Below are positions 679 through 36,651 of a DNA stretch of 39,644 bases, in pieces. Source of the stretch: a virus; the IMG/VR virus record IMGVR_UViG_3300024520_007517; one strand, 5' to 3'. The notes under the pieces were generated by a model that ran no database searches, was not told where the DNA came from, and was given only the letters and a program-made list of their open reading frames with translations. Position numbers and translations under genes: made by a program. Numbering within the stretch: the first letter of the stretch is position 1; the number at the start of each line of letters is the position of its first letter.

Positions 679-686
679 CTTATCCC
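679..686 (-). promoter_or_regulatory. GGGATAAG start-associated motif (core), 64 nt upstream of CDS 208..616
   Basis: reverse complement of cttatccc; consensus leader GGGATAAGAGAAG... Confidence 0.5.
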
Positions 687-705
687 TCTTCCCCCACCCC
701 AGTTG

Positions 706-1050
706 TCACTCCTTCTGGGCTTTGACCCAGTCGTGGTAGCCCTCGCGGGTGCTGCCATTCTCCACCTCGTACTGCCAGTCACGGACGGGGTGCTCGTCGT
801 CGTCACCCCAGTAGTCCTTGGGCGGCGAGGAGATCTCCAGGTTCTCGATGAAGACGAACTCCCGGTCCGTGATGACGTCGGTCTGGAAGTGCGGTCCCTT
901 CGTTCGAGAGCCCAGCTCAATGATGAGGCTGTCCCGGCCTGGCCGGATGACCAGTTGGGCCACCATCGGCTGGTCCCTGTTCACCTCGTCGAAGACGATG
1001 GCGTGGATGGCTCCGTTCTTCATGCGTGCGATCTTGGTGTTCAAGATCAC
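706..1050 (-). CDS. hypothetical protein (114 aa)
   Basis: C-terminal part of track ORF 706..1296; GTG start overlaps stop of upstream gene (GTGA); AAGGTG SD. Confidence 0.55.
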   Translation of the reverse strand: MILNTKIARMKNGAIHAIVFDEVNRDQPMVAQLVIRPGRDSLIIELGSRTKGPHFQTDVITDREFVFIENLEISSPPKDYWGDDDEHPVRDWQYEVENGSTREGYHDWVKAQKE

Positions 1051-1406
1051 GGCGTCACCTTCTGCGTGGCCGGGAAGATGGACCCGCACTCTCCACGGCA
1101 GGTGGCCGTGTCCTCGCTCACCTCCAAGGTGCCACTCTCGCACTTGGGGCACTCGTCGTCGGTCTCGTGGGTCATCCACGGACCATCGATCACCACCGCT
1201 GTCTCCTTCACGAGCAGCCACCCCTCCTTGGGGGCGAGGTCTGCCTTGGTGAGGTGGGCGTCCTCGGGGGTGGGGAACCGCCAGTCCATGGCCCACTCGT
1301 ACAAGTGGGGGTCAGCCCATGGGACCAGCAGTCGGGGCTCGGTCTCTCCGTCGGGCACCACCAGCTCTCGCCAGCAGTACCACTCTTCTGTCTTGTGCTC
1401 AGCCAT
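1047..1406 (-). CDS. hypothetical acidic Trp-rich protein (119 aa) with C-terminal CPKCE zinc knuckle
   Basis: track ORF; ATG with GAGGAA SD; overlaps upstream gene by 8 nt. Confidence 0.65.
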   Translation of the reverse strand: MAEHKTEEWYCWRELVVPDGETEPRLLVPWADPHLYEWAMDWRFPTPEDAHLTKADLAPKEGWLLVKETAVVIDGPWMTHETDDECPKCESGTLEVSEDTATCRGECGSIFPATQKVTP

Positions 1407-2286
1407 CTTCGCGTTCCTCTCTTCTCTCTTTGAGCACTTCGTTGGCGTGCTCTTGTGCCTTTTCTTGGCTCATCCCAGCCGAGCTGTGGACTCCGTTGAA
1501 TGGGCAGTTGTCCTTGATGAAGTAGACGTGGGGATCCGGGCAGGTGTCGTTGTCGTTGAGCTCCATCTCGACCTCGTAGTTGCGGACACGCTCGTCCGGG
1601 GCGTAGCCCTGGAGGCCCATGGCCGCCCGGCGGGAGAGCCACACGACGTTGGCGGTCGTGTTCTCCGGATCCGTGGGGCACCACATCTGGTCTCGGTGCC
1701 GAGTCAGCACCTTTCCGCAGTTCAAGCAGTGCCGGCTGCCGTCATCCCAGGCGTTGGCCCTCCAACAGTCGGTGCGACGTGTCTTGAGCACGGTCATCAC
1801 CTGCTCTTGGGCCTGCTCCGCGTTGATGGCGACGATGATGTCGACAGGCACGTGGTCTTGGGGCTCTGGGAGCGTGGTGTTGGCCTTCATCAGCTCGATC
1901 TTGACGCCGTGGTCCTTGGCGAACCGCGTCATCTCCTCTACGAAGCCCCTTGCCTCGCCCCAAGAGAGGCGAGAGTCGGGCTTCATCACTACGGACAGCG
2001 AGTCCACGATGACGACGGGGTCGCCGAGGCGCTTCTTGACGCCTGCATCGACCTCGCCGGCCCCGGTGTACCTCCCATTCTGGCGTTCGCCGTCGGCTGG
2101 GCAGGTGTGAGTGGGCGGAAGACCCTGTGCTCCCACCCGCCAGTGGCAGGCACGGCACTCCCACCCCGGCACCTTGCGAGTGCCGGAGGGGAAGTCGGTG
2201 AACTCGATCATCACGCCGTCGTAGTAGTCGTCGACGTTGTCGTCGGTGACCTCGTAGGGCCCACCGACGATGAGAATGCGGCTCAT
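1399..2286 (-). CDS. RecA-fold-like protein with two zinc-ribbon motifs; P-loop apparently degenerate (295 aa)
   Basis: track ORF; AAGGAGA SD; VVIVDSLSVVM resembles RecA/RadA/DnaB Walker-B; ILIVGGPY lacks GKS/T; CxxC...C pairs. Confidence 0.6.
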   Translation of the reverse strand: MSRILIVGGPYEVTDDNVDDYYDGVMIEFTDFPSGTRKVPGWECRACHWRVGAQGLPPTHTCPADGERQNGRYTGAGEVDAGVKKRLGDPVVIVDSLSVVMKPDSRLSWGEARGFVEEMTRFAKDHGVKIELMKANTTLPEPQDHVPVDIIVAINAEQAQEQVMTVLKTRRTDCWRANAWDDGSRHCLNCGKVLTRHRDQMWCPTDPENTTANVVWLSRRAAMGLQGYAPDERVRNYEVEMELNDNDTCPDPHVYFIKDNCPFNGVHSSAGMSQEKAQEHANEVLKERREEREDG

Positions 2287-2615
2287 GGCGTCTCCTTCAG
2301 TAGTCGGTCACGCTCGGCGTTGATCTTGGTCATCGCCAGCTTGCAGTTGAGGTAGAGCTGCATGCCCAAGGCACGCGGCTCCATCGGCATCTCGACGCAC
2401 TTGCACATGAGGTCGAGGTCACGGAACGTGAAGTTCCAGGCCGGGTCTTTGTCCCCATCCTCGAGCAGCATCTTCACGACGCTCAACAAGTGAGGGATCT
2501 TGCGCTTCACCGTGTAGTCGTAGTGGGACTCGGCCGAGGCCAAGAAGTAGTCGACCTCCTCGATGGTGAGGTCGAGGCGCACCAACACCTTGTAGTCGAA
2601 CCGCTTGACGATCAT
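2283..2615 (-). CDS. hypothetical protein (110 aa)
   Basis: internal ATG of track ORF 2283..2807 (MIVKRFDYKV...); start overlaps upstream stop (ATGA coupling). Confidence 0.55.
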   Translation of the reverse strand: MIVKRFDYKVLVRLDLTIEEVDYFLASAESHYDYTVKRKIPHLLSVVKMLLEDGDKDPAWNFTFRDLDLMCKCVEMPMEPRALGMQLYLNCKLAMTKINAERDRLLKETP

Positions 2616-34910: not shown

Positions 34911-34918
34911 CTTATCCC
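34911..34918 (-). promoter_or_regulatory. GGGATAAGGGTCTCGAACC motif, 30 nt upstream of CDS 34658..34882
   Basis: motif core on minus strand. Confidence 0.5.
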
Positions 34919-34972
34919 CCAGGATCTAAGCTAAGAAGAGGCGCTGCATACGCAACACCCCCTCCCACCGTC

Positions 34973-35148
34973 TACTCCTCCTTCCGCTCGGCGCAGAAGA
35001 GCTGAATGGCCCTCAAGTCCCCAGGACTGAGGATCTCCTGCTCAGCAGGAGTCAGCTTGTTGTGATCCCATCCGATGGGGTCGAAGGAGTACTCGGCGTG
35101 GTCCAGCAAGGCGGCCAGCACATTCTGTTCGTCGTCGTCACCGCTCAT
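34973..35148 (-). CDS. small acidic protein (57 aa; MSGDDDEQNVLAALLDHAEYSFDPIGWDHNKL...)
   Basis: not in track; high GC3; ATG overlaps stop of upstream ligase gene. Confidence 0.45.
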
Positions 35149-36613
35149 CAGGTGTGTCCAGCTTCTCGTTGATGCACTCCTCGACCGCCTTGTCGTCGCG
35201 GAAGGCGGCGATGCGGGGATGGATCATGGCGTTGGTCTTGCCCCCGTCCGTCTTGTAGAAGCGGCGGGAATACTCCACCCGGACGACCTTCGGGAAGACG
35301 GCTGGGTCGGCGAGTTCCTTCTTGTTCTCCTTCGTAAGCCCACCCCCGCAGTCGCAGAGGTAGATCAACTCACCGTCGGGATCCAACTGGTACAGCGCAA
35401 CGCTGCCCACCTGCCCCTGGTACTTGCCGGTGCCCCAGGTGCCCTGGCCTCGGTCGGGGTCCCAGTAGGCAATGCAGTCGTCTTCGTACACCGGCTTCAG
35501 CTTGCCGGTGTACTTGCCTGGTCGGTCGGGCTTGCCCCGGAAGTTGTAGGCGCGGTCTCCGAAGACTCCCTTGGGGTCGACGACGACCCAGCCCTCCCAG
35601 TCATTGTGCTTGGCTAGTGCTCGCGCGGTGTCGTCGAGGGTGACCTTGACCTCTTCATCTCCCTCCATGAAGACGGCTGTCGGGAAGAGGGATCGGCGCT
35701 TGGAGAAGCGCAGCTCACGCCCGGCCCGAGAAGCATCCCAGACCACCGCTCGTAGTCCCTCGTCCCAGACCTGCTTAGGGGTGAGGGTCTGCAGGGGCAG
35801 CAGCCATTGCATGTCGGCGGTGAGTTCCTCCACGGTTCCCATTCGCTCAGCGAAGGTTCTCTCGGAGACGACGGGCTCACCGTCCCAGAACCCTATGTCC
35901 CAGACGTAAAAGCTGAGCCACCCCTCCTTCTGCTGCAGCTGCAGCGCCTTGTTGGTCAGGGATTTGGTGACTCGCTGGACGTAAGCGAAGTCGTCTCGAC
36001 CTCCTCGGTCAGAGACGAGTTCTCCAAGTAGGAGAGTGTTCGGGGGTATCTTTTCTTCGTGGAGGGCCACGAGGCACTCTTCGTAGAGCAAGGGAAAACG
36101 CTCAGCCCAGAGTCGGTAGTCCTCCCCTTCGGCCTCGCGGTCGTGGGTGGGCCGCATTCGTCGGCTGTAGATCTCCACATCGTTGGTCGTGGTGCGGATG
36201 ACGTGCATCATCCCTTCGCGCTTTCGGCCGAAGAGCACTCCCTTACCAAGCAGCACCTTCTTCAGGAGCGTCACGGACAGGGAGTTGTCGGGTTTGTAGA
36301 AGCACAGGGAGATCGGGAGCTGCTCATCCGGGAGCAGACCGACCGGAACTACATCGCTGCCGACCTCGGTGTAGCCGGTGTAGCTTCGGAGCGTCAGCTT
36401 CCGCAGGGCCCTGTCCAGGGCGTAATCCTCTGCGGAGACCTCGTTGCTCTTGCCTACGTTGATGGGCCCGTAGGTGTGGGAAGTCTCCTGCATCGTGCCC
36501 TTGAGGACACCGTGGGTAGTCGTCTCTGTCGCACCATCCACACGGATGGTCCAGCACAAGGTGTGCTTGCGGCCCTTCTGGTGGAACTCTCTCTGCTCTC
36601 CGGTCCAAGTCAT
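35138..36613 (-). CDS. ATP-dependent DNA/RNA ligase-like nucleotidyltransferase (491 aa)
   Basis: internal ATG (MTWTGEQREF...) of track ORF 35138..36694 with GGAGAAAC SD; candidate motifs: I YKPDNS (KxDGxR-like), III LLGELV, IV EGWVVVDPKG, V KLKPVYEDD, C-terminal OB-like region. Confidence 0.5.
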   Translation of the reverse strand: MTWTGEQREFHQKGRKHTLCWTIRVDGATETTTHGVLKGTMQETSHTYGPINVGKSNEVSAEDYALDRALRKLTLRSYTGYTEVGSDVVPVGLLPDEQLPISLCFYKPDNSLSVTLLKKVLLGKGVLFGRKREGMMHVIRTTTNDVEIYSRRMRPTHDREAEGEDYRLWAERFPLLYEECLVALHEEKIPPNTLLLGELVSDRGGRDDFAYVQRVTKSLTNKALQLQQKEGWLSFYVWDIGFWDGEPVVSERTFAERMGTVEELTADMQWLLPLQTLTPKQVWDEGLRAVVWDASRAGRELRFSKRRSLFPTAVFMEGDEEVKVTLDDTARALAKHNDWEGWVVVDPKGVFGDRAYNFRGKPDRPGKYTGKLKPVYEDDCIAYWDPDRGQGTWGTGKYQGQVGSVALYQLDPDGELIYLCDCGGGLTKENKKELADPAVFPKVVRVEYSRRFYKTDGGKTNAMIHPRIAAFRDDKAVEECINEKLDTPDER

Positions 36614-36643
36614 CGTTTCTCCAAGTTCTGTTGGTCCATTATT

Positions 36644-36651
36644 CTGATCCC
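36644..36651 (-). promoter_or_regulatory. GGGATCAG variant motif, 32 nt upstream of ligase-like CDS
   Basis: motif core on minus strand. Confidence 0.35.

Follow-up and report, generated by a model that had tools for sequence, protein, structure and literature searches.

The 39,644-nt stretch of viral DNA filed as IMG/VR virus record IMGVR_UViG_3300024520_007517 (the window, in its full length) carries on its minus strand a repeat built around the octamer GGnATAAG, which, judging from sequence, is very probably a promoter (probability about 0.9). This reading is based on the bipartite geometry of the repeat, its restriction to one strand and to intergenic DNA, its occurrence ahead of RNA genes, its conservation at orthologous places and its absence from structural genes and from the plus-strand operon. 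We lean towards the view that the sites represent a lineage-specific promoter class of short leftward transcription units that is read by a phage sigma factor rather than by the host's primary sigma factor, because the core is conserved across GC contents and hosts, departs from the host consensus at position -7 and co-occurs with a lineage-specific full-length sigma factor. The window covers part of the genome of a large, uncultured phage of marine origin, of which Salmonella phage Arash is a distant relative.

Copies, strand and position of the repeat

The window contains 15 exact copies of GGGATAAG, all of them on the minus strand; 0.41 copies were expected and none of 100 shuffles yielded 15 or more. 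Inclusion of one-mismatch variants and a scan with a position weight matrix (PWM) built from the sites led to 22 credible sites (Table 1), seven of which are variants: GGCATAAG (three sites), GGGGTAAG, GGGATGAG, GGGATCAG and GGTATAAG (one site each). The approximately 20 minus-strand copies that an earlier note on this DNA had listed with positions and variants were thereby borne out. All 22 sites are located in non-coding DNA, although such DNA makes up only ~19% of the minus-strand gene territory, and all are oriented in the same direction as the gene downstream. The repeat is thus a real and non-random feature. At 18 of the 22 sites an AGGAGA-like Shine-Dalgarno sequence and a start codon follow, the latter 34-71 nt from the first G. 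A single degenerate plus-strand copy had also been noted at 4734. A match is present there, but its PWM score lies inside the shuffle background (~3-4 matches), as do those of two further plus-strand matches at 14500 and 32673, and all three are probably due to chance. The PWM scan did not detect the motif in the 18-kb plus-strand operon of the window, and it is likewise absent from the structural genes examined (18.6 kb and 19 kb).

Anatomy of the repeat

We numbered the octamer GGnATAAG 0 to +7 from its first G and give the coordinates of the upstream box relative to the same G. Column counts reveal a conserved box, G.AAA/GCAAC, at -21 to -17, which is A-rich and takes the form GCAAC or TGAAA. 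It is separated by ~15 variable bases from the octamer GG(G/C/T)ATAAG, with 17 nt from GCAAC to GATAAG. Downstream of the octamer, five variable bases precede a pyrimidine-purine (Y-R) step at +13/+14 that is found in 22 of 22 sites (TG 16, TA 3, CG 2, CA 1), and beyond it little can be discerned apart from the ribosome-binding site and a weak 'ACC(C)'. The previously claimed highly conserved leader of ~40 nt did not hold up in this form: Strong conservation is restricted to GGnATAAG, N5, the Y-R step and the upstream box, and the leaders resemble each other within subsets only. The appearance of a 40-nt leader arises because the core promoter, a short CA-rich 5' untranslated region (5'UTR) and the Shine-Dalgarno sequence are contiguous.

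When the purine of the Y-R step is taken as +1, ATAAG falls at -11 to -7 and GCAAC at the position of a -35 element, with a spacer of 17 nt and G or C at -12. The predicted layout is that of a sigma-70-family promoter with G replacing T at -7. Two conserved blocks are held at a near-constant spacing of ~15-19 bp, and the same layout recurs in relatives of the window, in Arash and in Vibrio phage D69. All 22 sites are intergenic, co-oriented with the following gene and equipped with a purine 6-8 nt past the -10 element, the start site itself being predicted. The A at -11 of a sigma-70 -10 hexamer is present, but -7 is G in essentially all sites, which argues for a specialised sigma factor and not against promoter function. 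The predicted 5'UTRs have a length of 20-57 nt (median 26), are CA-rich and G-poor and contain AGGAGA and the start codon. Of the options considered in the earlier note, a phage-specific promoter comprising the -10 region and the transcription start is the one supported by geometry, position, RNA genes and conservation.

RNA genes downstream of the repeat

Not all sites are followed by a protein-coding gene. Since some of them stand ahead of a tRNA-like gene or of non-coding RNAs that are conserved, the element appears to act in transcription and not in translation. The RNA after site 10891 (~73 nt) has counterparts in two relatives (L104 849-924, L098 985-1062), in which it is better conserved than the adjoining genes and exhibits two compensatory pairs; it reads GACUGAAACCACAG... 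and forms two hairpins, the second of which consists of GCGGACCGAAAGGACCGC and a U-tail. The RNA after site 33758 (~105 nt) is structured, lies in antisense orientation between two plus-strand genes and has a counterpart at L001 16425-16530. A relative whose protein identity is 69% has exactly the same 3' half, and compensatory changes affect four base pairs; a credible match to an Rfam family was not obtained.

The tRNA-like element noted earlier is supported by Rfam but not called by ARAGORN (Table 1). Inspection by eye shows an aberrant anticodon arm, with a loop of 5 nt or a stem of 4 bp (CCUC GCAAGAG GAGG), and a weak acceptor stem in which only four of seven pairs form. The gene may encode a degenerate tRNA or else serve as a decoy or as a processing signal. 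At 10206-10309 (minus strand), a CA-rich leader with a Shine-Dalgarno-like CCAGGAC is followed at once by a terminator hairpin with a 13-bp stem. The counterpart of this promoter, 10288, stands at the very end of L104, and the unit could be either an 'empty' cassette or a source of a hairpin or small RNA. A subset of leaders contains a 5'UTR hairpin, GUCGGAC...(U)CCCCGAC, just before the Shine-Dalgarno sequence (minus strand 10118-10173 and 11866-11916, the latter being the 5'UTR of site 11916 with GTCGGAC...CCCCGAC). It is conserved in orthologues (L104 1902 and 824; L098 2008) and could gate translation.

Conservation in related phages

Syntenic relatives were recovered through one plus-strand gene and are represented by L098 (188-kb contig), L104 and L101 (117-kb contig), whose proteins share 43-69% identity with those of the window (L101 ~43%). 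In the corresponding region, each of them features six to nine same-strand copies of GG(G/C/T/A)ATAAG. In alignments of the orthologous intergenic regions the octamer and the -35 box are kept and the flanks diverge; the gene content between the conserved promoters varies among the window and the three relatives. A scan of IMG/VR with exact 15-mers gave mostly single chance matches, L025 and L012 alone being informative. IMG/VR contigs of 171 kb (GC 64%) and 164 kb (GC 57%) contain seven and four same-strand copies of the motif in the arrangement GCAA(C/A)-N15-GGGATAAG-N5-YG, running directly into GAGGAGG, and no homologue of a window protein was detectable in the pieces of these contigs that were sampled. 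The promoter core is therefore conserved there and the window's leader is not.

In the 173-kb genome of Arash, an unbiased strand-specific count of 8-mers ranked TGGTATAA and GGTATAAG highest. The minus strand has 30 copies of GGTATAAG and the plus strand a single one, and the copies precede minus-strand non-structural genes and one tRNA. The Arash consensus, tGGTATAAGtAaagTGtAaa followed by a Shine-Dalgarno sequence, agrees with the window in N5-TG and in the leader. Its octamer deviates from that of the window by T for G at the third position, and some copies read GGTATAAGAGAAGTG. Vibrio phage D69 (45% GC) has ~10 copies of (T)GTTATAAG in the same arrangement. We also inspected 3 kb around the RNA polymerase gene in 45 uncultured relatives of Arash (GC 38.5-55%) that had been found via the Arash polymerase: 39 of them contain one to five copies of GGTATAAG-N5-YR, at most 3 kb away from the polymerase gene and on the opposite strand. 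Across ~100 sites in phages with GC contents of 38-67% and with hosts including Salmonella, Vibrio and marine ones, the G at -7 is invariant.

Sigma factor and RNA polymerase in the phage lineage

The 188-kb relative encodes a 266-aa sigma-like protein within its structural operon. A 266-aa sigma factor that is 89% identical to it (P0132) is encoded on a 49-kb contig, the end of which overlaps the flank of the window's vault gene end to end over 1001 nt with 98.9% identity. This contig and that of the window stem from the same JGI sample. The phage of the window, or a near-identical strain, therefore encodes the sigma factor ~10 kb past the right end of the window. A further homologue, P0136, resides on the 117-kb contig that also bears the motif. 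Profiles and fold place regions 2-3-4 in one polypeptide. Pfam reports Sigma70_r3 with 30.0 bits (cut-off 25.3) and region 4 with 20.4 bits, which is below the cut-off; the SigB and FliA/WhiG models of NCBIfam align over residues 39/82-260, with all matches far below the family cut-offs; and Foldseek returns full-length sigma-S, SigD, SigB and WhiG with a probability of 1.0 over ~255 columns. The only relatives from cultured phages are gp10 of Arash (28% identity along 244 aa, E 9e-22) and a protein that Vibrio phages D69, D148 and D181 encode. The sigma gene follows that for a large lysozyme-bearing/cell-wall-hydrolase virion protein both in Arash and in the lineage of the window's phage.

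In Arash virions, mass spectrometry identified the sigma factor gp10 at 100% coverage together with the beta subunit of RNA polymerase, which gave the most spectra of any protein, and beta', and a role of the virion transcription proteins in early transcription has been suggested by the authors, who describe the phage as devoid of lysogeny genes and make no mention of promoters (PMC10585845). Beta/beta' RNA polymerase is present in Arash, in D69 and in more than 70 uncultured relatives (GC 35-56%). Arash gp206 (OQ632216 130093-134670), although annotated as 'beta subunit', aligns to both rpoB and rpoC and has the DYDGD catalytic motif and is thus a 1525-aa beta-beta' fusion. Several uncultured gp206 homologues (loci L113-L188) are interrupted, with a homing-endonuclease annotation and frame breaks.

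L098 contains an extra sigma gene (3812-4903, minus strand) behind a GGGATAAG promoter. The 363-aa product is nearest to proteobacterial RpoH/RpoS (~79 bits; PDB sigma-S 4e-18), which hints at a proteobacterial host and at traffic of accessory sigma factors through cassettes. It was rejected as the cognate factor: The gene is absent at that position in the window and in L104 and is itself located downstream of a GGGATAAG promoter. Arash, too, has a second sigma factor, gp196. A distinct late-promoter motif was not found: What seem to be gaps among the structural genes of L097 look like coding sequence.

Proposed mechanism and alternative explanations

According to our proposal, each copy would constitute the core promoter and 5' end of one of ~22 short leftward units in a large lytic-type phage. 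A -35-like box would be followed by ~15 nt, by GG(G/C/T)ATAAG with ATAAG at -11 to -7, by N5 and by Y-R as -1/+1, and the transcript would begin with a CA-rich leader bearing AGGAGA and the start codon. Many units would be closed by a GC-rich hairpin just ahead of the next promoter, resulting in autonomous promoter-gene-terminator cassettes. The reader would be the sigma factor encoded in the structural operon, i.e. the homologue of Arash gp10, which would be delivered with the DNA to begin transcription of non-structural genes with either the host core enzyme or a phage polymerase. Delivery with the DNA is suggested by the location of the sigma gene in the structural operon and by the presence of the protein in Arash virions. 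The GGnATAAG sites would then form an early or non-structural promoter class served by phage-delivered or phage-made machinery. In its most specific form, with GGnATAAG-N5-YR as the cognate promoter of a virion-packaged, injected sigma factor that starts early transcription with or without a phage beta-beta' polymerase, the proposal is tentative and we would not rate it as probable. If true, it would describe the first sigma-dependent virion transcription system, with a promoter common to phages of Salmonella and Vibrio and to marine phages of high GC content, and the G at -7 would keep phage promoters apart from the sigma-70 regulon of the host. Its interest lies in the fact that known virion RNA polymerases work without sigma as far as known.

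Several points weigh against recognition by a phage sigma factor or against promoter function as such. Start sites and promoter activity are predictions, and the -35 box is degenerate, with a spacing of ~13 to 16 nt. The sigma gene is absent from the window itself, and the link between sigma factor and motif is a co-occurrence across few lineages without a negative control. In Arash and D69 the motif (TGGTATAAG / TGTTATAAG) comes very near to the extended -10 element TGnTATAAT of the host. A phage RNA polymerase was not found in the parts of the high-GC marine genomes that were read, and pattern-based scans of IMG/VR and of JGI metagenomes recovered relatives with a GC content of 35-56% and none from the high-GC clade. 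Finally, the authors of the Arash study caution that abundant enzymes might co-purify with virions (PMC10585845).

The main rival is recognition by the host's primary sigma factor. The sites would be ordinary early sigma-70 promoters like those of T4, and the G at -7 and the GG would be a quirk of the lineage or be meant for another protein. The bipartite geometry, the A at -11 and the TG-like extended -10 element in Arash and D69 speak for it, as does the early-type gene content (small membrane proteins, the ligase-like gene, the tRNA-like gene), and the RpoH/RpoS-like sigma gene driven by such a promoter in L098 would fit a cascade from host to phage sigma factors. Primary sigma factors, however, strongly prefer T at -7, precisely where the ~100 sites from phages of varied GC content and host have G without exception, and in the clade of the window -12 is G or C as well. 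A generic scan for sigma-70 promoters recovered none of the 22 sites and showed no excess of canonical promoters over the same 17 kb (2 observed versus 1.6 expected). One of these two (TTGCCA-N17-CATACT, Table 1), the -35 element of which is the right arm of the palindrome GGCAAC-N6-GTTGCC (15506-15523), does exist alongside the GGnATAAG sites, so the window has two promoter types. As it is conserved in the relatives, the host-type consensus is apparently used separately. We consider recognition by the host factor unlikely and prefer the phage sigma factor.

Two further explanations abandon the idea of a promoter and are both very improbable, marginally more so the first. The repeat could be a shared 5' leader bound by a translational regulator of phage or host, comparable to the start-associated sequence (SAS) and extended SAS (ESAS) of Cluster K mycobacteriophages, as the earlier note had considered; the position of most copies shortly upstream of start codons and the CA-rich leaders that are alike within subsets would agree with this. 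Yet copies also precede the tRNA-like gene and non-coding RNAs, the distance from octamer to start codon is spread over 34-71 nt, a conserved box lies upstream at -35 spacing, and L025 and L012 keep the core and not the leader. The SAS consensus is even under-represented in the window (8 observed versus 22 expected with up to three mismatches). Asymmetric repressor sites of the Cluster A 'stoperator' type that silence the region would likewise be expected as many same-orientation copies in short intergenic gaps, and an over-represented palindrome overlapping the -35 box in a subset of sites makes binding of some regulator likely. The fixed geometry of N5-YR and -35 box, though, is what a promoter has, and the sites are limited to one gene class rather than spread genome-wide. 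Neither an integrase nor an immunity repressor turned up among the proteins scanned, and Arash is described as lacking lysogeny genes.

Complementary to a promoter role is the idea, also voiced in the earlier note, that the units of hairpin, promoter and leader act mainly as recombination modules shuffling small genes. At 9 of the 22 sites a strong hairpin, with a dG of -26 or lower as against -25.5 for the background's 5th percentile, ends 18-39 nt upstream, and since these sites directly follow hairpins, many genes form individual terminator-promoter-gene units. More than half of the sites have no strong adjacent hairpin, and terminator-like sites are only ~2-fold enriched, a modest value that we attribute to the weak T-tails in GC-rich DNA. 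The near-identical leaders that had been reported are real: Sites 9484 and 10489 share a block of ~31 nt, and among the near-identical pairs likeness starts a few bases upstream of the octamer and ends at the start codon, so that identical blocks of 20-30 nt do not reach beyond promoter and leader. The proteins encoded downstream are unrelated to each other (no matches in blastp). The cassette without an open reading frame (ORF) at 10288 and the differing gene content of the relatives point in the same direction. In L098, a 295-aa gene and the 363-aa sigma gene follow the promoter and leader that drive the 141-aa gene in the window. L104 shares this leader, and the similarity of L098 to L104 and the window stops directly after it. 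This is one indel, of which the promoter-side boundary alone is seen, and junctions or mini-circles would be invisible in metagenome assemblies. Cassette shuffling is thus plausible, with anecdotal support in mosaicism and the indel at the shared promoter/leader. It may be a secondary property of the promoter units; that it is their main or primary role is possible but doubtful.

Individual sites and neighbouring features

Table 1. Predicted promoters and tRNA-like gene in the window. Positions are those of the 39,644-nt window; 'first G' is the first base of the octamer.
Feature	First G	Coordinates	Strand	Downstream gene or RNA, remarks
Promoter, variant GGGATCAG (36651-36644)	36651	36637..36672	-	491-aa ATP-dependent-ligase-like gene 35138-36613; -40 kcal hairpin adjoins upstream
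Promoter, GGGATAAG (34918-34911)	34918	34904..34939	-	74-aa gene 34658-34882
Promoter, variant GGTATAAG (33758-33751), shorter spacer	33758	33744..33779	-	between plus-strand genes; structured non-coding RNA ~33640-33744
Promoter, GGGATAAG (15482-15475), -35-like TGAAAAA	15482	15468..15503	-	operon headed by 265-aa gene 14624-15421; orthologues of site in L098, L104, L101
Promoter	13841	13827..13862	-	141-aa gene 13376-13801; hairpin upstream
Promoter	13370	13356..13391	-	91-aa membrane protein gene 13058-13333 and downstream genes
Promoter	11916	11902..11937	-	229-aa gene 11177-11866; -33.6 kcal terminator-like hairpin 11970-11939 upstream
Promoter, weak variant GGGGTAAG	11157	11143..11178	-	57-aa gene 10942-11115; orthologous TGGATAAG in L098, L104
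Promoter, variant GGGATGAG	10891	10877..10912	-	conserved ~73-nt non-coding RNA 10805-10877
Promoter	10778	10764..10799	-	73-aa gene 10512-10733
Promoter	10489	10475..10510	-	39-aa membrane peptide gene 10331-10450; core and leader near-identical to 9484
Promoter	10288	10274..10309	-	leader and strong terminator hairpin ~10206-10274, without ORF
Promoter	10173	10159..10194	-	166-aa gene 9618-10118
Promoter	9484	9470..9505	-	36-aa peptide gene 9337-9447 and downstream genes; -32.8 kcal hairpin upstream
Promoter	8642	8628..8663	-	391-aa DUF2325-like gene 7429-8604; -35 is left arm of GGCAA-N6-GTTGTC palindrome
Promoter, GGCATAAG	7352	7338..7373	-	adjoins tRNA-like gene, predicted start ~1-4 nt ahead; -35 within palindrome GCAAC-N5-GTTGC
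tRNA-like gene		7270..7337	-	Rfam tRNA 40.7 bits (7274-7334); ARAGORN negative
Promoter, GGCATAAG	7241	7227..7262	-	152-aa multi-pass membrane protein gene 6743-7201
Promoter, GGCATAAG	6439	6425..6460	-	116-aa gene 6053-6403; terminator-like hairpin 6500-6472 upstream
Promoter	5615	5601..5636	-	110-aa membrane protein gene 5221-5553
Promoter	4654	4640..4675	-	120-aa gene 4248-4610
Promoter	4081	4067..4102	-	~3-kb operon headed by 101-aa gene 3742-4047; hairpin 4134-4115 upstream
Promoter	686	672..707	-	135-aa gene 208-615; longest predicted 5'UTR, ~57 nt
Contrasting promoter, TTGCCA-N17-CATACT		15516..15544	+	sigma-70-like, heads plus-strand operon; kept in L098, L104, L101

A second repeat of the window is the palindrome (TTAG)GCAAC-N5-GTTG(C/T), observed 45 times versus 14.8 expected with up to two mismatches. 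Copies start at 2917, 3637, 4087, 4895, 5735, 5788, 5868, 6446, 7248, 7358, 8649 and 15506. Its left arm coincides with the -35 box in five promoters, and the palindrome of the divergent control region at 15506-15523 is kept in four genomes along with AGATCT. The element GCAAC-N5-GTTGC is a candidate operator for a dimeric regulator. Three copies of the palindrome are found in a gene-poor stretch of 440 nt (5616-6052, minus strand), each followed by GGGTATATGG, GGGATATATGGG or GGGTA, together with a hairpin with a 13-bp stem. This stretch could be a regulatory hub, or it could contain decayed cassettes or promoters of a different type.

Another copy of GGGATAAG is present ~70-76 nt past the right end of the window (L004 1941-1948; L001 9637-9644) and is conserved in a relative. 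It is situated between two oppositely oriented genes and directed toward the vault-protein gene. A transcript starting there would be antisense to a conserved 66-aa gene (39432-39632, plus strand), which may reflect an early/late antisense interplay.

Identity and gene content of the phage

The earlier note had implicitly taken the DNA for that of a small actinophage, which is not correct given its affiliation with large marine metagenomic phages distantly related to Arash. In a megablast search, 10 kb of the window matched no deposited phage, and a search of IMG/VR with the 391-aa protein retrieved no relatives. Proteins encoded in the window comprise a homologue of the major vault protein, an ATP-dependent-ligase-like protein, a VanY-type peptidase and a glycosyl- and methyltransferase cluster. 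The closest relative, with 69% identity for the vault protein, is a 188,377-nt ENA contig, which also encodes large virion proteins that contain a lysozyme domain. The idea of a phiC31-like Streptomyces phage was rejected on the basis of protein content (major vault protein, glycosyltransferases) and of the metagenomic relatives.

The vault ORF (36734-39391, minus strand) spans 885 aa, with a called product of 868 aa, and is homologous over its full length to the major vault protein of eukaryotes and myxobacteria (Pfam MVP_shoulder 4.5e-24, Vault_3). Such a gene is unusual in phages. Its homologues include thousands of metagenomic sequences at ~44% identity, many of them labelled Myxococcota, and proteins at ~36% in 'huge phage' records of 462-735 kb. 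The plus-strand operon contains, at 24430-30963, a cluster of genes for a glycosyltransferase, a methyltransferase, a hexapeptide-transferase and PIG-L. Its content varies in comparison with L001, L098, L101 and L104. It is a second variable region and may serve modification of DNA or the cell surface.

Comparison with known systems

Since promoter classes specific to phages are known, the repeat in itself is not exotic. What makes it worth attention is that one short core persists, irrespective of GC content and host, throughout a very broad group of phages of 160-190 kb that is almost unstudied, that it departs from the host consensus at the position which sigma-70 reads most strictly, and that it co-occurs with a sigma factor which is a virion protein beside a phage RNA polymerase in the only cultured, proteomically analysed member. 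The searchable literature yielded no publication that describes the motif. It offers a testable handle on how transcription starts in these phages, i.e. whether the sigma factor is injected and whether it pairs with the host core or the phage enzyme, and it will help to annotate transcription units, small RNAs and hyperplastic regions in metagenomic contigs of the clade.

The Cluster K SAS, to which the repeat had been likened, is the 13-mer GGGATAGGAGCCC, located 3-7 bp from the start codon and including the ribosome-binding site, and the ESAS consists of an inverted repeat of 17 bp (Pope et al., 2011; PMC3203893). Both systems have in common an asymmetric repeat that starts with GGGATA, has a single orientation and is confined to non-structural genes. 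The likeness nonetheless fails on sequence, position and phage type: The octamer of the window lies 34-71 nt from the start codon, a separate Shine-Dalgarno sequence is present, RNA genes, too, have copies ahead of them and the phage does not belong to the actinophages. In the window, GGGATAGGAGCCC has no match with zero or one mismatch and a single one with two, and none of the matches with up to three mismatches falls on a repeat site. Stoperators are repressor sites distributed across the whole genome of temperate phages. The many asymmetric, transcription-oriented 13-14 bp sites in short intergenic gaps are a common trait with those of Cluster A, but the sites of the window have promoter geometry, serve one gene class and are not accompanied by a repressor or integrase among the proteins scanned.

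PeSL (promoter-early stem-loop) cassettes of T4-type phages mediate modular shuffling (Arbiol et al., 2010; PMC2839356; Comeau et al., 2014; PMC4122927), and their promoters are strong host sigma-70-like early promoters (PMC2839356, PMC4122927). The window resembles them in having putative composite terminator/promoter units next to presumably non-essential small ORFs in variable regions, in a regulatory repeat common to unrelated genes and in the differing gene content of relatives at the cassettes. It differs in that the -10 element is GGnATAAG with G at -7, in that a strong hairpin adjoins only ~40% of the sites and in the lineage, which is unrelated to T4.

Among group-3 sigma promoters, the consensus of those of FliA/sigma-28 is TAAA-N15-GCCGATAA, and the A-rich -35 box, the ~15-nt spacer and the -10 block led by G/C and containing GATAA are reminiscent of it. 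The best family matches of the phage sigma factor include the SigB/F/G and FliA/WhiG models. The motif of the window, however, lacks the CGA core, Arash has GGTATAAG, and the matches of the sigma factor stay far below the family cut-offs.

The RNA polymerases carried in the virions of phiKZ, AR9 and N4 are not known to require a sigma factor and recognize single-block promoters. With these systems the GGnATAAG sites share a phage-specific, highly conserved promoter on non-structural genes (PMC5312081, PMC7598289, PMC4666361, PMC4496689) and the proposed service by transcription proteins that are found in the virion, in our case that of the cultured relative Arash. They are set apart by the bipartite motif and by a lineage that encodes a complete sigma2-3-4 protein.

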